A stretch of 64,000 nucleotides of DNA. Origin: Cirrosporium novae-zelandiae. Lineage: Eukaryota. The stretch is taken from the NCBI GenBank assembly GCA_026023565.1, contig JAPETS010000024.1, forward strand, positions 1 through 64,000, written 5' to 3'. The notes beneath the pieces were generated by a model. That model searched no databases and had not been told where the DNA came from. It saw nothing but the letters and a program-made list of their open reading frames with translations. Of this stretch, positions 47,472 to 64,000 are shown piece by piece (position 1 is the first letter of the stretch; each line of letters starts with the position of its first letter). Made by a program: the position numbers and the translations under genes.

Positions 47472-49786
47472 TCGCAGTTAATGGTATCGTCTGTTGAGTC
47501 GAGTGGACTTGAAGGCCTGCTTCAAAGTGAAAATAACAATTATAGGAGAAAAATCTGTGACCATATCAATGAGAAGTACATTTATTTAGGTGATATAGAT
47601 AGGTAGTAAAAAGGAACCTATATCTGCGAAGCCCTCATTCAGACACTGCCACCTTAACAAGATGAGTTGAATCATGCACGTGACCGCTGGCGCGACCCTC
47701 CTTCTTTTCCCATCCTTTTTTTTTTACATCACCCTTCCGCACTTCCTCCCAATGCTCACGCCAACTCTTAAAGATCGACACCCCATACTTTTTATGATAG
47801 AGACCACAGCGGAAGAGATTTAACGACTGTTCACCGAAGCCGGTAATTTATTTAATTTAATTAAAATTAGGATTTGTTTTTAGATAGCTACCTGTTTATC
47901 TACTGGGTAAGAATGCAATAAACTCTATCATCGTCACGTATTTACGAACAACAAACTGCGATATGTTATTACATTGCATTTGTCTCAATATTGTATATCA
48001 ATTTCTAGAAACTTTCAACTATTTAAATGGACATATTTTATAATTATTCTAAAATTTACAGCCTCTTCCAACAATGTGAGGGTGCATGGCGACGGAATTT
48101 GCGACCTGAGGCTGCGGGTTGCGGCTGAAAATTGCCGCAAGTTGGGGTTGCGGCAAATTAACGACTTGTGCCTTAATAAAAACTTCAGTCGGCGTCTGGA
48201 GGGAAACATTAGTCAATTGCTACAGTATAGTTTCATTACGTTATTATCGTAAAAAGTTTTACTCAATTGCTTTCTGAGCCAGGCTCCTTTGACTCTGGCC
48301 CACCTATCTCCATCGTAACGAACAGCACCTTGTAACAAACGAAGAGCACTTCGTAACGAACGGAAAGCACTTCGTAGCACCTCGTAACGAAAAGCATTTC
48401 ACGGGACTCAGCTTGCCCCAGTCTACACGTAATGGCCCGGCTAAGTTCAACAGCTCATCCACACGCGTTTCATTCTCTACAAAGCTAGGAGCCATCATTG
48501 AGTTCGGCGGAGCTGCTTCTTCCTAACGGCTAGGCCGAGCGGTGAAGGAAATAGGGACAAATTTGGGGGTGTAGGAAATAAGGACCAGCTTCTGGTGAAG
48601 GGAATAAGGGACGGATTGGTGATGAAGGAAATGAAGATGAACTTGTAGAAGGAGTTATGGACGAGTTAGGAATAAGGACGAACTTTGTGGTGAAGGGAAT
48701 AACGAAGAAGGGAATAAGGGCAGAGGGACTAAGGCCGAACTTGTGGTGAAAATAAGCATACTCTACATACTCTACTTGGCTGAAGGATGCAGAATGCCTG
48801 CCACCCCAACCAACATTACACCACAATTCACCGTAATTAAACATTTATTTCAACGTTAACATAGTCTTTTTTTCTATTTTTTTTTTATAAAATCTAATCT
48901 TGATGATAAGATCAATATATATAATTATATATATTGATCATTATATCTTGGAAATCGAGTTATCTACGCTACTGCAGATTTTCATTCCCTAATCCGTCTC
49001 CTCATCTAACATTTGGTGTAAATATAATATTCCGCAACCTCCAAGCAAAACCCATTGATTGATCTATGCCGTTTGAAACATCATTTTCGGACTTTAGTGT
49101 TTTGAAAGTCTAGACCTGCTATACTTTATGCACTTGACTAGGATATGAATTTTCGCCGTCTCCTCTCTTGCTGTCGAGTGACGCGTCACTGTCTACCAAT
49201 GTTTATCACCTATGTTCATCGTCCTTTCACATGGCCAAAGTGACGCGTTTATGGAGGTCTAATTCCACAGCTTGCCAGGCTGTTGGCATTCACTTGGCTC
49301 AATATCAGCTTGATTAAGCTATTATATATATGATAGTCTTCATACGTCACCCTCAATTCCGGCTGCTAGCCCTGAATTGTTTCAATTTGAGGGTAATTAT
49401 TGACGCAGGTACCACAGCGCCTTGCTGTGCTGCCATGTTGGCATGCATTGTAGGTGGCTGAGTTGTACCTGCTACAACAATTTGGGATTGAACAAGTACG
49501 TATTAGATATATACTGTAATGTGACCTAGCATTGTGACTGACTCGATTTGGTAGTCGGTCTATGATTGTGGTATTCTGGAGTCGAGGGATGGATGCTCCC
49601 ACTCGGGCCCTGAGAAACCTTGTACGGTTATCGTCATGGGTTATATGTTATATATAAGGCTTGTAATCCTCATAACAGATGGCCTACTCCCAGGTCTTGT
49701 CTCTCCATTCGTCATTACTATCCAACGAAACCAAACGCTCGTTTGATACGCTCGCGCTTGACTTCTTGATTTAGTTTAACCCAAAC

Positions 49787-51654
49787 ATGCGTCAATCCTC
49801 GCGTGTAGTTGTTGCCGCTCTTGCGGCGACAGCAAGCGCTACATCCCTCGCCGATGTCTGTACTGTATCGAACGTGCAGGCGGCGCTACCCGCAAATGGG
49901 ACCTTGCTTGGCATTGCATTGATCCCGTCGTCTGTGACGGCAAACACAGTCTCTTCTACTTACGACTACTGCAACGTGACAGCTACCTACACACACCCTG
50001 GCAAGGATGACTCTGTGATCGTCTGGTACTCTTTCCCAAGCCCCGACAGCTTCAAAAATCGTTTCTATGTCGGTGGTGGAGGAGGCTACACCCTCAACAG
50101 TGATGCGACCGGAGGCCTCTCGTATGGCGCTGCTTCTGGCGTCACCAATGCAGGCTATGATGGCTTCAGCTACAGTTATGACGAGGTGGTCCTTCTTGGA
50201 AACGGGTCGATCAACTACGATGCTACGTACATGTTTGGATATAAGGCACTAGGCGAGATGACAGTCGTTGGAAAGGCCCTTGCGAAAGGATTCTACAGCT
50301 TGTCTACTGACACCAAGATCTACACCTATTTCGAAGGATGCTCCGACGGTGGACGAGAAGGTTGGAGTCAAGTCCAGCGCTGGGGTGAAGAGTATGACGG
50401 TGTGATCGCCGGTGCTCCAGCCTTCCGTTACGCGCATCAGCAAGTTGTAAGTAACCCTCGCTGTCTATAATATCCCTTTATGCTGTATTAGGAGTCAAAA
50501 GCCGTTTTGGAACTCTCAAGACAATGGCCATGACCCACTCAGCCCCCCCGCCTAATAAAAAAACACACACTAACCTCCCACAGAACCACCTCTTCTCCAA
50601 CGTCGTTGAAAAAACCCTAGACTACTACCCCCCACCCTGCGAGCTTGATAAAATCGTGAACCTCACCATCGCAGCCTGTGACCCACTCGATGGGCGAACC
50701 GACAGCGTAGTCTCTCGAACCGACCTCTGCAAGCTCAACTTCAACATCAGCTCTACAATCGGATCATCCTACTACTGCGCGGCCGAGAACAGCACCTCGC
50801 TAGGCTTCAACTTCGGCCAAAGGAAAAACAAGCGCTCATCGTCTTCAACAACAAGCTACCAACCCGCCCAAAGTGGCACCGTCTCCGCCAAAGGCGCCGC
50901 GGTCGCCCAAGCCATCTATGACGGTCTGCTAACCTCCAACGGCACCCGAGGCTACCTCGGATACCAACCCGCGTGCTCCTTCGAAGACGCCACAACCTCC
51001 TACGACTCATCCACCGACAGCTGGGAACTCGACATCACCTCCACCGGCGGCGAATACGTCATGAAATTCGTCTCCGAACTCGACGCCGACAACCTCTCGA
51101 CTCTCGACAACGTGACCTACGACACCCTTGTAGAATGGATGAACACAGCCATGATCCGCTACCTCGACAGCCTGCAAACTACGCTTCCAGACCTGACTCC
51201 CTTTGTGAATTCCGGCGGAAAGGTTCTACACTACCACGGCGAATCCGACGACAGCATTCCCACGGGCTCGTCGGTCCACTACTACGACTCCGTGCGCACC
51301 ATCATGTACCCCGACCTCTCCTACAACGAGAGCGTCGACGCCCTCGGGGACTGGTACCGTCTTTTCTTGGTCCCCGGAGCCGCGCATTGCGGGACCAATA
51401 CCCTCCAGCCGGGTCCATATCCCGAAGATAACATGGAGATTATGATTGACTGGGTGGAGAACGGCGTGGTACCGACGAGGCTCAACGCGACTGTCTCTTC
51501 GGGTACCTATTCGGGCGAGACACAAATGCTTTGCCCATGGCCGTTGAGGCCTTACTGGCCTAACAATGGCACCACTATGAATTGTCAATACGATCAAGAA
51601 TCGATTGATAGTTGGACGTATACATTTGATGCGTTCAAGCTACCAGTGTATTAG
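49787..51654 (+). CDS. Tannase / feruloyl esterase family protein, secreted
   Basis: Signal peptide; EGCSDGGREG, YHGESDDSIP and LVPGAAHC (CS-D-HC motif); intron 50447-50583. Confidence 0.95.
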
Positions 51655-52079
51655 AGTGTTTGTGTGTTGTGTGTGTGTTTTTGGAAAATAAATTCTATGG
51701 GATATTCCCTGTGGGGGGGGCTGGGCTATACGAGGAAATTTTTGATCTTGATGTCTAGCCTGAGTTTTTTTTTTTTAAAATTCACATGACCTGGTCTTCC
51801 ATTTCCGCGGGGATATATCTTTCAATTTTTTCGTGCGGTGTACATATATATACATAACATATATATTACCTCTTCTTCATAACCTTTATGGTTATCTCTG
51901 AATATATATATATACATAAGAAAACAAAAATGGAAACATTACATATAGTCTATCTAGCTATATCTAGAGTATTAAGTAAGATTACCTCAGGAGAAGGGTC
52001 GGGGGGGGGAGCCTCCCATGTGAGAAATCATGATACCCAGCCCCTTCCCTTTTTCCTTTTTTTTTCTCTCGAAAAAATT

Positions 52080-52305
52080 CAAACATATGCCCAGGGTGTT
52101 TGTTTTGACCAGCTAATTAGCTAGCTCCTGAGATCAGATTAGATATTCCTAAAGAGCGCTAATTAGTGAATTTGGTCACACACGCTAGACTACTGGTTAT
52201 TAGTGTTTTTTTTGTAGAATAATTAAAACCCTAATTAATGGATTTATTACCCATTTAAGTATCCAGTTATTTCTGAATACAGTAATTACTTAGTGTCCAT
52301 GTGGT
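52080..52305 (-). repeat. Degenerate dispersed repeat, copy B (inverted relative to copy A)
   Basis: e.g. AGCTCCTGAGATCAGATT vs AATCTAATCTCAGGAGCT; TTTGGTCACACAC vs GTGTGAACCAAA. Confidence 0.6.
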
Positions 52306-52341
52306 GGCTAGTGGTTGGTGCCCCTTTATTCTTACCCTTAC

Positions 52342-52656
52342 TGTCAAGGTTGGGGCTCTGATAGTGTAGGTAGCGAGGCGGATAGGTAGTGTGTCCATAT
52401 CGTAGTAATATTTAAATAATAGTACTCCTGTATAATACAAGACTGAAAGCTGGCCTTTCCCAGCTTTCTTTCTATCTTCTTATATAAGTTTTTCTATTTG
52501 ACGTCTTCTCGGTAACCTATCGGCGCCACGTAACGCCACTTCCCCGTTTTCATCCCGCCTTTGGTCCCCAGACGTAGCGACCCCTTCTAGTACTCCATTT
52601 CCCCTCCTTTGTGACAGAACCCCTTTTTAGTATTCTACTTCTCTTCCTTTGTGACA
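52342..52656 (-). mobile_element. Solo LTR (315 bp)
   Basis: TGTCA...TGACA termini, perfect 5-bp TSD CTTAC (52337-41, 52657-61), internal TATATAA; orientation tentative. Confidence 0.85.
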
Positions 52657-54080
52657 CTTACCTCGTCATAGTATAGAATATATTTCCATAACCTAGTTAG
52701 CAGCAGCAGTAGCAGCAGCAATAAAAAAAAAACTCCTTACGACAAGGAAAACCATTAATTGAATATACAAAATGACTAACGACTCCAAAGAGAAAGAAAA
52801 AAAAGGAAAGAAAAAAAGGAAAGAAAAAAATACTATATAGTAAGTATTCTATATTATGACATAACATAACATTGATATACAACCATAAGACCTGTACTGT
52901 ACTGTAGTAAAGTAACATAAAACCTCAAGCTTCCCTCTCGCTCCCGCTTATAACACAACATCCCCACACCTCTCAACTTATCTCACATCCTCATTTCATC
53001 TCATCTACATCTTTATCTTATCTCATCTTATCTTATTCTCAGCCTCATTCTCAAAGCATCCTATCCCATTCATTCTTCTATACCCCTGGGTCGTTTATCC
53101 GTGAACCATACATGCAAGCATCTGTCCTAGGTAATATAATTCCATATTATTTTATTACCTTACCTTACTTTACCTTCGAACTCTTCTTCGTTAAGATAAG
53201 ATAAAAACCATTTATAACAGGTGGACAAACGAACATTGGATCGGAGGGAATAAATAAATGTCATTCCTTCCTTACCTATCCACTTACCTATCCACCTACC
53301 TACTTGCCGTTCCCCGTGCTAATGTCAATGTCAATGCTAGTGCCAATATCAATACCCGGCCTCCTTCCCCGTCGTAACTAACCTGTCCTGAGTCCTGACG
53401 TTATACAAGCAACGAAGATTTATAATCAATCAACTCATCTATCAACCCATCAATCAACCCATCCGACGTTACAGTATATATATACATGGAACACAAGATT
53501 TATAATCAACCATCCAACCATCTATCCATTCAATCAAACTTCGGTAATATTAATTATTAATTATCCCGAAATCCTCATAAGGATCATCATTATTTTTTTG
53601 GGAGGGGGGTTACGGCCATTTCGGAGTTAAGAATATCTCTAAGGCTTTAAGGGCTTATCTACCAAGTATGACATGCATAGTAGAGAGTTGATTGGGGCTG
53701 GGGGCTGGAGGATGGGTTTCTGTAAATGATTGGTGGGTTATCGGTGGTATTGTATCCTATCCCGTTTTGAGGGATTGTCGTACTTTACTTTCTTTACAAG
53801 ATGAGATGGGAATGAGGGTGGATGAGTAAGTGGGGTATCATGGAAGGAAGGAAGGAAGTTCCGTTAATTAACTAACCATACCCAACTAAACTATCCGACT
53901 CCGCATAGATACAAATACGTAGGCAGGTAAGGTATCTTAAGATGCCTTGGATATATAAATAACGAGAGGTAATAAGCACCATACCCTTTTCTTGTTGGAA
54001 TATCTATCTAATACTTTATATAAAAGAAGACCTCCCCCCCCCAAAAAAACTCATTATTATCTTGTTATTTTGTTTATCCA

Positions 54081-54129
<49 letters not shown>

Positions 54130-54143
54130 CACGTCCCAAAAAA

Positions 54144-55031
54144 ATGGCAGTCCGAATGACCCTCCTATTAAAAAAACTAGATTCCATTTCAGATGAAGAG
54201 TTTCATAAATAATAAGCTCCCCTTCCCTCCTCCCCCTTTCCCTATCCATCTTACTCCTTACCCTCTACTAATACCCATCTACCTGGTCCGGCCCACACGC
54301 AGAATTTTTCCTAAACGTTCCAATTGTCAAAGAAAAGATTCTTAAGTTTTCGCAGGTTGGTTTTTGGTCCTTAGTCTTAGCCCTAGTAGTCCCTCTGATC
54401 CGCTCGTGTTTTTTTTTTTTTTCTTGGTGGGTATTGTTGAGTTGAGCGAGTGAGGGAATGAAGGTTCTATTCACCACGAAGAGGGTATTATATATATATA
54501 TATATAAACAAGGGGGGGTTGCTTATCTACCTACCTATCCAATCCCACTCACACACACACACTCTCTCTCTCTGGATCAATCCCCCCTTCACTTTGAAAC
54601 AAAATCCCTAATAATTATATTATACATATATATATAGTTCCACGTCGACAAAACCCTCTCCAACGGACTTTCCCAAATGGGATTTCCCATACTCGAATAT
54701 GATGGCATGGTTAGCGTTTGGGCTGCCTCAATGGAAGATTTGATGGCTGTAAGTTGAGAGATATTTATTTCTATTATACTCCACTCATTCACTCCTTGTA
54801 TGTGTGTGTGATATGCGCCCATGGCTAATGCTGGGTAATTAGGTACTTCAAGATGCGGAATACCAACGGGTTGTTGTGCCGGATGCCAAGGTTTTTTCGA
54901 AAACGGATGAGAGTAAGGTCATGATTGGGTATGATAAGGATTTTGTGGTTGAGGGGGGGAAGAAGGGGTTGTGGATAGATGTAGATGCGATGGCGATGGC
55001 GACGGGTATTAGGGACGGAATAAATCGGTAG
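54144..55031 (+). CDS. EthD-domain (dimeric alpha-beta barrel) protein, four exons, absent from ORF track
   Basis: Exons 54144-54211, 54283-54355, 54638-54748 and 54843-55031 give MAVRMTLLLKKLDSISDEEFHKYWSGPHAEFFLNVPIVKEKILKFSQFH..EYDGMVSVWAASMEDLMAVLQDAEYQRVVVPDAKVF. Confidence 0.85.
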
Positions 55032-55732
55032 TGATATTGGTGTTGTATAAAAGAGAGATGTATGTATGTATGTATGTATGTATGTATATTTCATCTATCA
55101 TTTATAGAAATCGAGTTGTCATGTTGCAGCACTTGTGGGCAAGAGACTACGTGATATAGGGATGAGTGGTATTATGAACCTATGTAACTAAAAAAAATGT
55201 TAGCTTTCAACAACTTCTTTTCAACTGCTTTGCTATTAATATTTTCCATTGACACGACTCTATATAGCACGCGCATCCAGCAACCATTCATTATTAACAT
55301 ATTCCCATTTCGCCACGTACGTCGCTCAGCATGTTCTAGCCCTAAGTTCCTAATTTACATGAGTGATGAACCCCCGTACACAATCAATCAATCATGCATC
55401 AGTGTCCATACAAGTCCTTATCCAGTCCAGATCATAAACAAAAATTCACCCAAAAGCAATCCAATTAATTCACCACAATCTTTGGAGAAAAACAAGATGC
55501 AACGAAGAAGGGTGGCCGGCCAGTCAAATTCACTCACCCCTCAACTTTTCTTCAGTTCCAAAAAAATAAAAAAATAGAAACGCCTACCGTGGAAATAAAA
55601 AGAAACAATGCATCTCAACGTATCAATCAGTAACATCTTATAGTCAGGTTATTCTCGATCAACCGACAACCACGTACGTACGTAACCATGCCATCGTACA
55701 TCAACATCATTAAGAATCAACCATAAAAAGAT

Positions 55733-58700
55733 CTATGTTTGCTGTCTCCCCGCACTAGCTGCTGCTAGGTGGCCTTTGAGACCCATTCTGGAGCTTCCTG
55801 GAACCCAAGCCGGCATCATCGTTCCAATTTTGAATGTCATTTCGTGAAACCAAGTTGGCATTCTCAGTCCTCTTGTGCTAACCTTGACCTTGCCTTCGGC
55901 TATACTCTGGATCATGTTGAGGACGCCGAATGCGCTACTGCCAATCGCACGGAATAGGGCTAAACATGCCACACTCCATAGAATAAAGGTGAGATACCAG
56001 TTGCTGGAAATGTTGGTTCCACTGTATGCTTCTGAGACGGCCATCGCCAGAGTTGCGTTAGAGACCATCCAGGCAATGACCATATAAGTTCGGACAGCTC
56101 GGTAGTAGTCTTCCTGCTGTTGAGCTTCACTGGGCCCTGGGTCGGGAACCTCGAGGCGGTCACGGAGGTTTCGGAGAGCCTCATCATAGCCAGAATCAAT
56201 ATCAAGTTGCTCACTAGGCATTTCGACTTCGACGGTATTTCCTTTGCCATGTGCAGCTCCGAGATCGGTATGGATGGCATTGTCTCCCTTTGTTCCCCAT
56301 GTAACGTCGTGGGTGTTACAGAATGCATATATCTGCAAGGTGCAGAGATAGCTGGGAAGGAGAGCAAAGTATTGCCCAGCAGAAGTAAACATATGCCATG
56401 GATCCAGATAGAGGAAAGACATTAGAAAATACAGACCAACAGTTGATAATGTGGAGACAATCACGTTCCTAAAGAGAGAGTTGCTCATATTCAACTTCAC
56501 GTCGTCTCCGGTCAGCTGGTCAACTATAATATATATCGATGCGGCGGTAGTATAGGCCATGATGATGGCATAGACTATCATAGACCCCATGAACATCTTC
56601 TTGGCACTAAAAATAACCAAACAAATATTAGTCATACATAATTAGAAGGGATGCGATTAATGATTATAACGTACCCTTGAGGACGATTACCCATAGATAG
56701 AATGAACTGCATGCATATGAGAAGCACGCATGAATAGCGAAGCAATATGAATATGTAATTTCCAATGTTGTGTCCAAATGGGTCGAGTGTCTCGTCGGCA
56801 AGAGAACCCGCAATGAAATAAAACGTCAGGTAGAAATTGGCCTGTCTTTAAATCAGTTATTGCAATTGTTGATTTGTGTAATAAAATCTTACCAGAGAGA
56901 AGTAGGTGAAGATCAGTTGGATGAATTGGTATACAAACTCTATATGCAACAAGATCTTGCGTATAAGAGTATGATCGGTTTTCCAGACTTGCCTGAAATG
57001 AATCAAGGAGTAGACTGCAGCGAAGAAAGCTCCATTCAACCATCGTCGGCGCTGAGAGATGAATTCGGGTACAGCGTCTAAAAGACATTAGCAAAACCCA
57101 GTGATTTTTAGCTTGTTTACTTACCAGGCACATCTGTTTCTCCCGTTGCACTCTTGACATATTTTAGAACCCACCTTTCATCTCTTTTCGCAACCAGTTC
57201 CCAGCAGAGAATACGATCTTCAGCAAGGTACATGTTTGCAGTGAAGACGTCGGCATCTTTCCCGTGAAGTGTTTCACCCTTGAAATATTGACTGAGCGGG
57301 CCATGTCCAGTACTATCATTTTGCAAAGCATAGTATCTATACGCACTCAATGCACCGGGAAGCACGGTGATATAGCCAAATACGGATTCCAACGGTTTAT
57401 CCAAAATGTTTGACATCTTGTACTCAAAATTCTGGGATGCCACCAAGGGATTAAGGAGACCCAGCCATCCCTTTCCTTTCGCAGCCTTGATTTCACCACA
57501 AGCACCAGCCACATTTGAATCTGTGTCGAATGCTTTCCATAAATGATAGAGGGATTTCGGACCGGGCTTGGTTCCGACATCAAGAAGGATGCATACATTA
57601 GGACTAAGAGCCTTTCCGAAAGCATTGAAAAACCAACGATGGGAATTCAACTTCTTCGAGTTTTTCTCTTTCAAGCAGAAAATCATCTGGCAAGGGACAA
57701 TGCCCTTTTCAGCGCCTTTGAATTTAAGATCGGCATCTAAAGAGACCTGAGTCGTATATTCGTAAACGTGTGCTGTGACTTCTCGCTGGTTCACCAAATT
57801 CTTGGCGATTCCATCCTGATAAATGCCCATAGCTGCTAGAGCATCCAAGGTTCGCGGGTGGACCTTTTGACGTCCATCAGAAACAATGCATATGACAATC
57901 TTTTGCCAACCGTCTTTCCCCCAAGTCCTCGATTTCGTTCGTGAACAAAAGTGTGCAATGTTTCTCATAACACCGTGCATTGTTCTCGTAAAGTCAATCT
58001 CGTTTTCGTTGTACATCGTGATGCAGATAAATAGCTCCGTCTCTCGGGCAGTAGGTCCGATGTTCTGTCGCAGCTTATACCCTCTGTCTACAAAATCATC
58101 TGGATCACAGGTGACGGCCGTATATCGCATGTGAGTGAACTCGACCTCATCCCTCCGTGGCAGGAAACTGTGCAAGATTGTTGGGATCTTACATTCCAAT
58201 ATGAGTTCACCATTAATCAGCTTAACTTCCTTCTTCGTCACCTGCGCTTGTCTAGCTCCTCGTCTGTCCTGACGCCCGACAGGAGCTGGCCCAATATGGT
58301 ATTCTTGTTGTTTTTCGTCTATTTCTTCTGCTGTAAAAGTATCTTCAGACTGAAAAGAATCATAAGATCTAAGGCTGGCACGATGATCTGCCCTAGCGTC
58401 TCCAAATACATCATCATCATCATCGTCACTTATAGGAATCCTTGCATCGTCTGTTAGATCTTGTGATGTTCGAGTCGGACCCTCATATAGTGGAGCCCGC
58501 GGTAAAGGCCGTCTAGGACTTCCTCCATATTGTGAGGAGGGAGTTCCAGGACGTGGGCTGCCGTTCAAATCTTCTGGCTCATAAGCTATACTTTGCGGAT
58601 GTCTAGATGACCAAACCGAGGATGTTCTAGATGGAGTCATCGGTCGTAGAGGAGATGAGCGGACGGAGCGAGTAGGCGAGGGAGGTCTGTAAGAGAGAGG

Positions 58701-59264
58701 TATATCTGTCGATATCGGCGGCGGCATATTAGGTGTAGGACCTAATGATGATGTTGGACGAGAAGGAGAATAATTGGAGCTAACGGAAGGTTGGTATGTC
58801 CGTCGTGAAGGGCTAGATCTATAGGATTGGGGACTTTGCCTAAATAAACGACGAAGTGGTGAGCCTTTCTTCTTTAGAGTAACACGAGCCTTTATATTTG
58901 GGTGTTGTGTAGAGAAAATACGAGAATATGCATAGTCTTGTGCAATTTGCTCATTGGTTTGGGCTTCCACGTTTTGCTTGGGTAATGCTTTTCTTGGAAT
59001 AGATGGGGGAATGCTTTGATCTTTGTTCTCTTCCACAGGTTTTATCCGCGATGAATGGGTTCGAAGTGCTGCAGGAATGAGAGATGGTACATACGGACGA
59101 GGTTCTACGTCGTCAAGAGAGGGTAGCAAACGTAGAGTAGAGGCAGCGGCAGCCTCAAGTGCTGGATTAGGAAATGAGGTGATGTCGTCTGTTGAGTCTT
59201 CAAAATATGGAGGAGGTCCTCCATAAACTGGAGGACCTCGAGGTGGAGTCGGTGAACGATCCAT
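55733..59264 (-). CDS. Chitin synthase, division 1, probably class II (ChsA/Chs2-like)
   Basis: [42 protein letters not shown] and [10 protein letters not shown] motifs; several introns. Confidence 0.95.
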
Positions 59265-60020
59265 ATTGCGATGAATCAATTATATCAGTAAAGTCGCGGT
59301 GTGCGCCTTGAGACTGGAATCAGTAATTTCTATCAGGTGCAATTGGCCATGAATCCGGTCAAGTTGGACAAGCTCGAACAAAGAGTAGCTATGAAGGCGA
59401 AGATCAACTATCGGAATTGAATTGTTAATACCTGAGAACTGGGCATGGAGCGGTCTTGTAGTGTGCCACATAGGTGGTGGATTTGTTGTCTAGTATTTGT
59501 TCAGTTGCTGGGGGCAACTCGGGAGTGATCCTTGCTTTGCATCCGATCTCGGTTCCGGATCCGTACCTTGCTCAACCCTGTTCAACCCTGCATCTGAAAC
59601 CCACACATCCTGTCATCACGAATCAGATTACTCTGTTTGAATCTTTTGGGAATCAATAACTAATTAACGCGCGGTGAATTATTCCTTACTTCTTGCTTAC
59701 CTAGATACACGAGAATCAGTGCCACTAACTGCGATTCCTGTTATTAAGTTTGGAACCCTGGTAGCTCTGTTTCATGCATTTCTTGTTGTCCTTTTATACC
59801 AGACAAATGTCATCAATGATAGCTTCGTGATAGTACCTCTCATACGGAGTAGGCATTCGAACGCGACACCGTGACCAGAAGGACTTGTCAATTTGCGCCT
59901 CTTCACCAGTTTGGTATAAGTAATCTTGTAATAATAACCCATGAAATGCAAACCGTCATTCCTCATGAAACCCGAGTCATCAAACACCAGCCCCAAAGAC
60001 TATATATGTAGTCACTACTC

Positions 60021-62958
60021 CTAAGCTATCCCCAGATTCCCCCCACCACCACCCATCCCCTCACTTGCAGTGCTCAGCCTTGCACACAATCCTAGCAGTA
60101 CTACCGTTTCGGTTGCTGCATAATAATTCAACACGTCCAGCAAGATCCTTAAGTGTCTGCTGAAATTATCTTCATACTTGCTCAGGGTGTCCTCCATCTT
60201 CGCAAGGCGACCTGGGTCGTATTTCTGAAGAGAGTCGGGAATGGAATGATGACGTGATCCCGAGGAAATGGACGTGAAGTATGCTTGCGCAAGAGGCCCG
60301 GCGGCAAGGGAAGAATCTGCTGTATAGAGGGAGCGAGTAAAGGTACTAGTATAGGTCGCGAAAAGATGGCAAGTATTTGTTAATTTAGAATGTATCTATT
60401 GAATAATTAGTCCAAACCATTCGACCCAAGAATGATTTGACAAAAGGAAGATAAAATGGAGTGTCAAAAGTTAGTCTAGCTAGGATAGATAAGTCACCAT
60501 GAGCCGAAGCTGCTGGAGAATAGGGCTATAAGAAGCATGCATGATATGAATTGACCAAACGTATAATAATAAGAAGATAGAGACTCACCCTTAGTAATCG
60601 TGACTGGGTTAGCATACACTCCTTAAGGCAAGTATCCAGAAAGTCAACATGATCCTGCATCAACTCGTCTACCGTCCTCATCACTTGCACACCGCCATCA
60701 CGCCCCTTTTCTCCATTCACTTTAGCCATCAGATTCTGCCAGTTCGGCTCGATCACCTCTGCTGTACAGAAGTACAGTAACTGTTGGACAAACACAAGCA
60801 TTCTTGCCCGTAAAGTCCAGATGCGTCGTTTCCACATCTCGATTTTACGGTCGGGCGATTTGTGAGTCCACGACGAGATCTTGGAGTGATCTGACCAGGA
60901 GTTGACCAGAAGGGTTTCAAGATGGCGTAGTGAAAGAAGGTATCGGAAGAGAAATTGGTATCGGGCAATAGTTTTTCGGCTAATGACCAGAGAGAGAGGA
61001 AAGGGAACGGAGTAATCGAGCTCAAGAGCATCGAAACCGATGATTGGTTTCTCGTCATTAGCTTGCTCTTGGGATGCGGAGGCTTGATAGCTTTCAAGAC
61101 CCCGCTCAACAGCATCTTGGTCGATACCTCGGACATTTACAACGCGCATAAGCGATTTGGTGAGACTGGTTTCGTTCATCTTGATCTTGACATCTTCTTT
61201 GAAGGGGTCTTGAGCAGCGATACTACCAGGTTGACGAAGAACGAGATCCAGCAATGATTGAATTTTGTTGATATTGACATTGACAGCAGGTTTCTTGAGT
61301 TCGGAAGCACTGAGTTCGAGAAAATAGGAGAAGAAATCGGAACGATCGAGGAAAAAGTAGTGTTTCAGAGACCGGAATCTCGCTGGGAGGCTATGTGTGG
61401 AAATAAGAAGTTCGAGGAGGGATTGATTTGCGTAGGCGTATGCTCCATTAACATTTTCGAGGAATCGTGGGTCATCAATTGTTTTAGGAGCGTCTTTGAC
61501 TTCCTTGGTGGTGTCAACCCCACCGCATTCGCGAACAACATTGAGATATTTTCCTGCTAGAAGTACCTTTTCTTTGACACTTTCTAATTGTGGAGGTACC
61601 TCACTGTCTCGTATCGTGTATCGTTTCTCCCAATATTCATCTGTATAGTCTTCTTCCAGTCTTTCTCGTTTAATGCCCTTTTGCTCCTTAATGAGAAATT
61701 CGGCATGAGGGTCCTTGATTCCTCCATGATGTAGCCATTCGTTTAGCATAGTCATGTAGGGTCTACTGGCTTCTCGAAGTAGTCTTTCTAGGAGCACCCT
61801 CGCATCTGGATCGCCAGACAAGGAAGCCAATCGCTGCGTCAAGACACCGAGAACGTTCCCGCCTTTACATATCTTCTTCCCAGACATGCTTCCCGGAACC
61901 AAGTCACCACCTTCTCTTAATCGCTCTAAGATGTTATCTACGTCATCTAGATCATCAATCGAATCTTCCAGGTCCTCTTCTAGTAGAGAGTTCTTTCTCA
62001 ACAGTTCTTGGGCAACATGATAGAGCTCCATGAGAGTATGCGTGTATGGCATAGTATCGATATGCATTTGCAGCAGCGTAAAGTCGGGGTTATTTATCGT
62101 CTGTTCCTCTAACTGTGACACCAGTATGAGATAGCGATCCAACTCCTTCCTCATCGCCGCACAAAGAGCATGGTTAACAGCACCAAACTCCTCCCTCCCC
62201 TGGACCTCAATAAAGGCATCCACTGCGCAGTAATGCGTCGCCATTGTCAGCATAGAAGCAATCAGATCTCGTAAATCAGAAGCCAATCCTGGCAGAACTT
62301 GAAAAATGGGCCCAGCTAGCCTGTTTTTCTCCTCTCCTGGATTATATGGTTCTTTGAAATGAATGTATTGTCCTTCAAACCCCATGAAAACAAACAATAA
62401 ATCATTCATGATCAGTGTTTCTTGCTCCTCCTTTGGCAGCCCTTTCAAATCAGGCGCCTGCAGTTTCTCCGGCACCTGAGACGCTAATGGAGGAAATGAA
62501 ATTCTTCTTGCCAGCGGCGCAGTAGTGTGAGGAATTATATTGGCTTGCGGCATCCACGGAGTCTCCATCTTAACCTCCTCTTTTCCTTTACTCTTCGGCT
62601 CGCTTGTCGACTTTGTATGTCTTGTAGATATAGGCGGGCTCCTCATCCTGGTATTAATGTGCAACTTCTCCGTTGTCGTAGTGGTGGTTCTCTCCTTGCG
62701 TCTCTCGGAAAATGTAGTGCCAGTCTGATAGTCTTGACTTTTTTTTTTGGATCCAGAGCCGTTCAAGCTCCCCACCATCTCCTCCATCTTCTCGGCTTGT
62801 GTTGCGGGAAACCCGTCTCTATGTCTCGCCGATGACCTCCCATCCTCGTCTCTCCCGCTCCCAACTCGGCTTGTAGCGACGCGGGGTCTGTGGCTTGCGG
62901 CAGTGGATGTGCGATCATGCTGATTGGTGGTGCTGCGAACGTTTGAGGTTCCTGACAT
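60021..62958 (-). CDS. SPC97: Gamma-tubulin complex component GCP2 (Spc97/Alp4)
   Basis: DLLFVFMGFEGQYI, YTDEYWEKRYTI, KVLLAGKYLNVVRECG and DHVDFLDTCLKECML motifs; last exon after intron ~60589-60397. Confidence 0.92.
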
Positions 62959-63352
62959 CTCTCATGTCCAAGTTTTTCTAGGCTGGTAAAAATTATTATC
63001 AATTAATCGACCAGAGAATTTTCGCATTGTGCAGGGAAATAAGATAAGCTCAGGATCTGGATCTATTGAGCGGACGCGAACCTCTGGGCAGAAGCGCGTA
63101 ATGAGCTTGAGATGGAGATTACTATGATGGGGCTAGCGTAGTTCAGCCCTATGAATGGCGGCCTGCGTAGACCTCTGCGGTTCTGGATACCTAGATATGA
63201 AGAGCTTCTGATTGTAGCTTCATACTCCCCCAACCATCTCACTCTTCTAGTTCTCCCATAGTAGTATCCTACGCTTCTCAAAGCAGGTCCACTATATACA
63301 TTAACAACTTGACCTTTTACTCCATCCTAACTAACAACCAAGCTTCCTCAAG

Positions 63353-64000
63353 ATGTTTATTGCACGATCAGAATATGGTAAGCTCCCACACCTATTCAAT
63401 CCTCATAAACATATACTCATAGACATATATACTAATTGAATCATAGATCGTGGGATCAAGTAAGACCACAATGCCGATCATTATAAATTACAGCCTTGGA
63501 TTAACCACTCCCCAGCACCTTTTCACCAGAAGGCCGTCTCTTCCAAGTCGAATATTCTCTTGAAGCCATAAAGCTTGGTTCAACAGCAATAGGTGTACGT
63601 ACGATACCTCTGGAATCTACATCCAACTCCAACTATTCTACCCCAAGTTTACTCCTCAAAAAAAATATACTAACCCTCACCCAGATTGCCACCTCAGATG
63701 GCATAATTCTCGGCGTTGAAAAACGTGTGACCTCCACCCTCCTCGAAGCGTCCTCTGTTGAAAAAATAGTCGAAATCGACTCACACATCGGGTGCGCAAT
63801 GTCTGGGCTTCAAGCTGATGCCCGCAGCATGATTGAGCATGCCCGGGTTGAGTCCCAGAACCATCGGTTCCACTATAACGAACCGCTGAGGGTCGAGAGC
63901 TGTACGCAGAGTATTTGCGATTTAGCGCTAAGGTTCGGGGAGGGTGCAGATGGTGAGGAGAGTGTGATGAGCAGGCCGTTTGGGGTGGCATTGCTGATTG
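63353..64000 (+). CDS. PUP2: 20S proteasome alpha-5 subunit (runs off window)
   Basis: [60 protein letters not shown] across short introns. Confidence 0.95.

Follow-up and report, generated by a model that had tools for sequence, protein, structure and literature searches.

Introduction

U2-type introns that begin with AT and end with AC, also referred to as type II AT-AC introns, are rare, having been described in animals and proposed in fungi. A survey of five species assigned 24 of about 610,000 introns to this class, with 15 of them found in human, 6 in mouse and 3 in fly (PMC1557818). Among the cases listed in that source are introns of the human SCN4A and SCN5A genes, which were shown to use the major spliceosome, and an intron of TAF2 that is common to human and fly; it also mentions type II AT-AC introns that were proposed for xylanase genes in filamentous fungi. 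The two terminal changes are known to compensate for each other, since in yeast and human pre-mRNAs a G-to-A change of the first intron base (G1>A) is rescued, at lower efficiency, by a G-to-C change of the last base (PMC1557818, section 20). Likewise, an engineered AT-AC intron is spliced in yeast in vivo, and one endogenous AT-AC intron, in RPL30, is reported for Saccharomyces cerevisiae, with an atypical donor (PMC5029451).

In filamentous fungi, AT-AC ends were recorded among the 0.31% of 'other' splice sites of 2604 Fusarium graminearum introns (PMC3577648), at 69 of 14305 junctions in Trichoderma longibrachiatum, where the aligner permitted AT-AC (PMC4324775), and at a frequency of 0.03% in SnowyOwl gene models (PMC4084796). 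They are also reported at low frequency in fungal annotations (PMC7072748). As for the minor spliceosome, neither Ascomycota nor Basidiomycota are reported to have convincing minor introns (PMC10639083), and the same source describes Ascomycota as devoid of most minor snRNAs.

Here, we analysed a stretch of DNA of 64,000 nucleotides (the window), in which the first intron of an EthD-like gene has AT-AC ends. It resembles the type II introns named above, as these are described, in its termini, in a major-type donor (/ATAAGT there, ATAAGC here), in an ordinary branch site and in being free of U12 signals. However, for the animal introns U2 dependence was shown and the AT-AC ends are conserved among orthologs, whereas the window intron is known from DNA alone; the sole orthologous intron that we found is GT-AG, so that the window intron looks like a lineage-specific conversion. 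Another parallel is offered by the engineered A1/C-last mutants (Parker and Siliciano 1993; Chanfreau et al. 1994; Scadden and Smith 1995; as cited in PMC1557818 and PMC5029451), which combine the same G1>A and last G>C changes in a U2-type intron and, in the case of the yeast double mutants, do so in an organism without a minor spliceosome, as the host of the window probably is too. These mutants, however, are laboratory constructs spliced at reduced efficiency, whereas the window intron occupies a natural locus and is apparently fixed in the genome. The AT-AC junctions detected by RNA-seq in Pezizomycotina share both the subphylum and the terminal dinucleotides with it, but the fungal surveys are bulk counts, some of them based on AT-AC-permitting aligners and most of them presented without orthology or donor analysis.

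Results

Gene model and relationship to the EthD family

The EthD-like gene is composed of four exons and, once the three introns listed in Table 1 are excised, has an open frame of 146 codons; the 146-aa product requires the removal of the AT-AC segment along with the other two introns. The exons contain no stop or frameshift, and introns 2 and 3 are GT-AG. Translation of exon 1 gives MAVRMTLLLKKLDSISDEEFHK, which matches the N-termini of two fungal relatives (P0010 and P0004, see below) and of the metagenome ortholog L001.

Table 1. Positions of the EthD-like gene, its splicing signals and the neighbouring genes in the window
Feature	Position	Strand	Description
Tannase/feruloyl esterase gene	49775-51651		45-nt intron 50447-50491
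EthD-like gene	54144-55031	+	Four exons, 146-aa protein
Exon 1	54144-54211	+	ATG at 54144; 3' end GAG TTT CAT AAA TA, the final TA being the first two bases of a Tyr codon
Stops in retained intron 1	54210-54215	+	In-frame TAA 54210-54212 and TAA 54213-54215
Intron 1	54212-54282	+	71 nt, AT..AC ends, phase 2, 80% pyrimidine
5' splice site ATAAGCT	54212-54218	+	U2-type donor with G1>A
Branch site TACTAAT	54266-54272	+	Predicted branch A 54271, 11 nt from 3' end
3' splice site TAC	54280-54282	+	AC replaces AG; first usably spaced AC past the branch A
Exon 2	54283-54355	+	C followed by WSGPHAEFFLNVPIVKEKILKFSQ; opens C TGG TCC GGC CCA CAC GCA
Intron 2	54356-54637	+	282 nt, GTTGGT..TAG
Exon 3	54638-54748	+	Weak direct Pfam EthD match
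Intron 3	54749-54842	+	94 nt, GTAAGT..TAG, branch GCTAAT
Exon 4	54843-55031	+	Stop TAG 55029-55031
Class 2 chitin synthase gene	55739-59279	-	Introns of 47 and 68 nt
Gamma-tubulin complex component gene	60529-62961	-	
Proteasome alpha subunit gene	63505-63999		

A full HMMER search with exon 4 as the query, carried out against 1.84 billion representatives, returned nine proteins at E up to 0.001. The relatives considered here are a 125-aa EthD domain-containing protein of Naematelia encephala (P0004), an 80-aa protein of Lachnellula willkommii with the source name 'Dehydratase' (P0002), and a 132-aa EthD domain-containing protein of Lachnellula cervina (P0010), which belongs to the cluster of P0002. 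With Pfam EthD (PF07110, cut-off 22), P0004 scored 52.4 bits and spanned profile positions 3-93, and P0002 scored 31.6 bits. When the exons of the window gene were scanned singly, exon 3 gave a weak EthD match below the cut-off (13.7 bits, E 0.14), and Pfam detected no EthD match in exon 1, 2 or 4. The conceptual product is, however, alignable with its relatives over its length: identity to the N. encephala protein amounts to 57.4% over 122 columns with zero gaps, and identity to the L. cervina protein to 64.3% over 129 columns, the sole gap being a 7-residue insert of the latter at the join of exons 2 and 3. Exons 3 and 4 are 67% identical to the L. willkommii protein. By full-length homology to proteins that pass the Pfam threshold, the window gene is thus a predicted member of the EthD family.

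Across the intron 1 join, the L. cervina protein reads EEFHNYWEGPHA and the N. encephala protein EEFHAYWEGTHA, both without a gap. Because the relatives align gap-free at this point, homology identifies the 71-nt segment as an intron. The join of exons 2 and 3 is likewise crossed by the N. encephala protein without a gap (KFSQ|FHVDK).

Word-index protein searches were less productive, with no match of exon 4 among longer proteins and with P0004 matching itself alone. N. encephala, the source of the closest full-length relative that the HMMER search retrieved besides those of Lachnellula, is a basidiomycete jelly fungus, and the EthD subfamily of the window gene seems, from the homologs retrieved, to be rare and patchily distributed. 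Two other proteins, of 2324 aa (P0003) and 508 aa (P0005), matched exon 4 in six to seven separate stretches at 35-36% identity, which may be a repeat or low-complexity effect.

The intron 1 junction is unique

To place the junction, we enumerated all deletions with the first removed base at 54151-54212 and the last at 54212-54328 that let the frame set by the ATG run on into exon 2. Among the 1222 frame-keeping, stop-free deletions, none had GT-AG and none GC-AG ends; 12 were AT-AC, three AT-AG and one GT-AC. The EthD motif EEFHKYWSGPHA was produced by a single deletion out of the 1222, namely that of 54212-54282, which creates a Tyr codon from TA and C, yielding MAVRMTLLLKKLDSISDEEFHKYWSGPHAEFF (across the join, EEFHKYWSGPHAEFF). 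If the same 71-nt cut is moved by 1 or 2 nt, this residue is replaced and KSW or KTW results, and the junction is thus unambiguous. There is a single GT within reach of it, at 54200, and the only AGs are those at 54215 and 54301.

Several alternative ways of reading the segment were considered and rejected. The GT-AC deletion 54200-54282 would remove the conserved EFHKY and pair G1 with C, and the three AT-AG deletions lose the WSGPHA motif. A nested twin intron is incompatible with the total lack of GT from 54201 to 54285. A-to-I editing of the first A, which would then mimic G, leaves the 3' AC unmended; reading through both TAA codons brings exon 2 out of frame; and on the minus strand the segment becomes GT..AT, which is likewise non-canonical.

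The sequence pattern itself is a poor guide to such introns. Counting both strands, the window has four starts of ATAAGY..CTAAY..AC, and the three besides intron 1 are devoid of flanking coding frames. As the bare pattern arises by chance, the signal lies in its position, exactly where homology needs a join, and not in the motif.

The core of this gene model had been put forward in a first-pass annotation of the same DNA, and our analysis upholds it. The AT..AC segment was found as described there, with the letters of the exon 1 end, ATAAGC, TACTAAT and C TGG TCC all present; its removal restores the EthD motif, with both full-length fungal orthologs aligning gap-free across the join; the unspliced frame does run into TAA, twice in succession; and the enumeration confirmed that no GT-AG pair would preserve the motif.

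Splicing signals of intron 1

Intron 1 begins with ATAAGCTC (in a longer read from 54212, ATAAGCTCCCC) and ends with CCCATCTAC, the last base being 54282. Its donor, ATAAGC, agrees at five of six positions with the U2-type AT-AC consensus /ATAAGT and lacks the TCC core of the U12 donor consensus /ATATCCTT (both consensus sequences as quoted in PMC5029451). Positions +2 to +7 of the donor are identical to those of the GTAAGCT donor in the L001 ortholog, so that the two heptamers differ at position 1 alone.

For the branch site, we compared intron 1 with five canonical introns of the window, two from the EthD-like gene, two from the chitin synthase gene and one from the tannase gene. CTAAT is located 10-26 nt from the 3' end in four of the five, and both the branch motif of intron 1 and its distance from the 3' end agree with these ordinary introns of the same organism. 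The sole AC between the branch A and the 3' splice site, at 54273-54274, is 3 nt past the branch A, and its use would break the frame.

The U12 branch-site consensus is TCCTTAAC, and TCCTTACC at 54255-54262, whose A lies 22 nt before the end of the intron, resembles it. As 80% of the intron is pyrimidine, such a TCCTT-like run is unremarkable, and we judged it to be a chance resemblance. By its ends, donor, branch site and the coding sequence restored upon its removal, the segment 54212-54282 is a predicted U2-type AT-AC (type II) intron.

A GT-AG intron at the same position in a metagenome ortholog

Metagenome scans returned a single orthologous locus, the 3654-base contig L001; another metagenome scan produced 384 pattern matches, none of which was confirmed. 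Using tblastn with the window product, P0010 and P0004, we located exon 1 of the L001 gene at 1940-2007 and the start of exon 2 at 2090. The intervening intron (2008-2089) is GT-AG and interrupts the same codon in the same phase as intron 1 of the window gene. The L001 junction reads TGC AAA TA|GTAAGCTAAATAAG...TTGACTAATATTTGGAGATGCAG|T TGG GAA GGC CCT CAT, and the two loci can be compared directly as AAA TA|GTAAGCT...GACTAAT..GCAG|T TGG in L001 versus AAA TA|ATAAGCT...TACTAAT..CTAC|C TGG in the window. The branch motif of the L001 intron, ACTAAT, lies 15 nt from its 3' end, and the interiors of the two introns are unalignable. With this one relative available for comparison, the simplest history suggested by the alignment would be that the intron was GT-AG in the ancestor and underwent the G1>A and last G>C changes in the lineage of the window.

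The L001 copy is itself damaged. In place of the window's CAG at the exon 2 end, it has an in-frame TAG (2160-2162), and a 1-nt deletion near 2453-2457 causes a frameshift in exon 4; this ortholog (1940-2510) therefore looks either decayed or badly assembled. Two of the L001 differences are of the C>T type (CAG>TAG and CGC>TGC). The damage indicates that the gene can be dispensed with and that some lineages have lost it, making decay more likely a priori in the window as well.

Host lineage and genomic neighbourhood

The best named matches of the adjacent chitin synthase come from lichen-forming and allied Pezizomycotina, with 99% of the query aligned at 67-71% identity. Their genera include Sarea, Acarospora, Mycoblastus, Caloplaca and Xylographa, and no match exceeded this level of identity, which indicates that the host is an ascomycete (Pezizomycotina) of a poorly sampled lineage. 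Rfam, queried with 52000-57000 (E up to 0.1), returned no match.

Several further propositions of the first-pass annotation fit these data. It had read the donor as GTAAGC with G1>A rather than as a U12 site, in agreement with its match to the U2-type consensus and with the L001 donor, and had called the branch site U2-type, as borne out by a CTAAT-type motif spaced like those in the organism's ordinary introns. Its statement that G1>A and the last G>C suppress each other in yeast is correct according to PMC1557818 (section 20), and the Pezizomycotina background that it assumed is corroborated by the chitin synthase matches and by the report that Ascomycota have no convincing minor introns (PMC10639083). 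Finally, it had proposed inspecting the orthologous intron in a relative, and L001 supplied a GT-AG intron with the donor GTAAGCT at the same codon position.

With regard to function, AurZ, the aurofusarin dehydratase of F. graminearum, is described as an EthD-domain protein (PMC5635595), and the orthologs of the window gene are EthD proteins as well. In contrast to EthD systems such as AurZ, the window gene has no polyketide synthase or other cluster gene beside it. The adjoining genes encode the tannase/feruloyl esterase and the class 2 chitin synthase, and none of the neighbouring genes in the window (49775-63999) points to a secondary-metabolite or other biosynthetic cluster.

Features outside intron 1

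Intron 2 has an unusual GTTGGT donor and is full of T-runs and TA/CA/CT microsatellites. Its L001 counterpart is just 70 nt long (GTTAGT..TAG), and the window intron seems, by this comparison, to have grown through microsatellite expansion. Another microsatellite, (CA)n(TA)n at 54075-54137, is situated just upstream of the gene, within about 10 bases of the ATG. At the other end, the product is longer than its relatives by about 21 residues: at 54965-55031 the window reads EGGKKGLW followed by about 21 more residues, and the relatives end with DGK(V/R/A)(V/L)-stop. This C-terminus looks like a stop-loss extension.

Accuracy of the letters

A search over 50500-58500 returned three runs (X1 to X3), all of DNA and none of RNA, of which X2 and X3 come from other organisms of the same study. 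From X1, a Logan contig of 984 nt with a word depth of 320.9 matched 54138-54478 and 54579-55046 without a single mismatch or gap; the comparison skips the repeat between 54478 and 54579 as well as the microsatellite upstream of the ATG, and covers both ends of intron 1. In X2 and X3, nothing aligned to the EthD-like gene at 80% likeness. X1 may be the source sample of the window, and its contig therefore excludes a slip of assembly or polishing but does not amount to an independent sample.

Discussion

Terminal G1>A and last G>C changes within an otherwise ordinary intron, placed exactly where homology demands a join, lead us to consider it probable that intron 1 of the EthD-like gene is a functional, compensated AT-AC intron handled by the major (U2-dependent) spliceosome. 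Its splicing at the RNA level, and the engagement of the major spliceosome in it, are likely on the strength of the splicing signals and of the intact frame around them. According to this scenario, an ordinary GT-AG intron inserted in the Tyr codon of EEFxxYW would have changed at both ends. The donor, (A)TAAGC, being otherwise intact, would still be recognised by U1 and U6, and U2 would pair with TACTAAT, so that A 54271 could serve as the branch nucleotide of the first step. For the second step, an A-C contact would take the place of the non-Watson-Crick one normally formed by the two terminal Gs; the first AC to lie far enough from the branch A (at 11 nt) would be used as the 3' splice site, and TA|C would be joined into the Tyr codon. 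The efficiency of splicing is probably below that of the GT-AG ancestor.

The state of the coding sequence is relevant to the alternative that the gene is a young pseudogene, in which one or both terminal changes killed the splicing of intron 1 and further lesions are yet to accumulate. Loss of this gene does occur, as the L001 ortholog is visibly decayed by a stop and a frameshift; the missing family stop, with some 21 residues added, can be taken as a mild sign of drift; and, in yeast work cited in PMC1557818, G1>A on its own blocks the second step of splicing. Yet the terminal Gs carry exactly the mutually suppressing pair of changes, and the donor from +2 to +7, the branch site, the two other introns, the start codon and all 146 codons are intact. 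Of the 56 residues shared without exception by P0010, P0004 and L001, the window product keeps 51 (with T>S, L>I, E>S, T>S and K>G at the other five), which is no worse than the 82-98% obtained by the same measure for those relatives. Moreover, by a rough estimate, once an initial mutation had abolished splicing, the specific G>C change would have to compete with some 50-70 disabling site-equivalents, and neutral decay would be expected to give such a pattern well under 1% of the time. We thus regard a pseudogene as unlikely, although it has to be weighed seriously.

It is also conceivable that the gene is real but is expressed by another path, be it through different non-canonical boundaries, a route that avoids the A1-C contact, or a truncated product initiated at a later start. 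The mechanism by which the AT-AC intron of yeast RPL30 is spliced is left open in PMC5029451, and the L. willkommii model begins at exon 3, as a truncated product would. However, the conserved Tyr is obtained from 54212-54282 alone, with the adjacent cuts giving KSW or KTW, the boundaries match those of the GT-AG intron in L001, and a product starting from exon 3 would miss the conserved N-terminal half of the EthD domain, all of which makes this possibility very slight.

Still less weight can be given to an error in the sequence or assembly behind which the true letters would be GT and AG. The window stems from a single assembly and microsatellites flank the gene, but the X1 contig is identical to it across both ends of intron 1 at a depth of 320.9, and two independent errors would have been needed exactly at the two terminal Gs, giving by coincidence a compensating pair. 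Finally, that intron 1 is of the U12 type and excised by a minor spliceosome, as its AT-AC ends and the TCCTTACC run might hint, is barely credible given a donor without the ATATCCTT core, the plain GTAAGC donor of the ortholog, and the description of Ascomycota as having no convincing minor introns and lacking most minor snRNAs (PMC10639083).

Returning to the compensated intron that we favour, one may go further and propose that the locus represents a natural, lineage-specific conversion from GT-AG to AT-AC, working without a minor spliceosome, in which a poor second step would act as a throttle or a condition-dependent gate on the EthD enzyme. We consider this extension quite improbable on present sequence evidence. 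In a stronger version of it, the little-sampled lineage may tolerate AT-AC ends unusually well and carry many of them.

The window intron is a further case of a known, very rare kind, and its particular merit lies in the GT-AG ortholog with the same donor. Within the literature searched, EthD is a new gene family for U2-type AT-AC introns. Should RNA confirm the junction, the locus would be a clean equivalent, found in nature, of the classic suppression experiment in yeast, in an organism confined to the major spliceosome and with the GT-AG ancestor state kept in a relative. For splicing biology, it opens no new question. For annotation, the consequence is practical: gene finders restricted to GT-AG and GC-AG introns will miss or truncate the window gene. 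The deposited models of its relatives look unreliable at the first two introns, given the exon 3 start of the L. willkommii protein (P0002) and the 7-residue insert in that of L. cervina (P0010), and these oddities hint at an annotation failure of just this sort.
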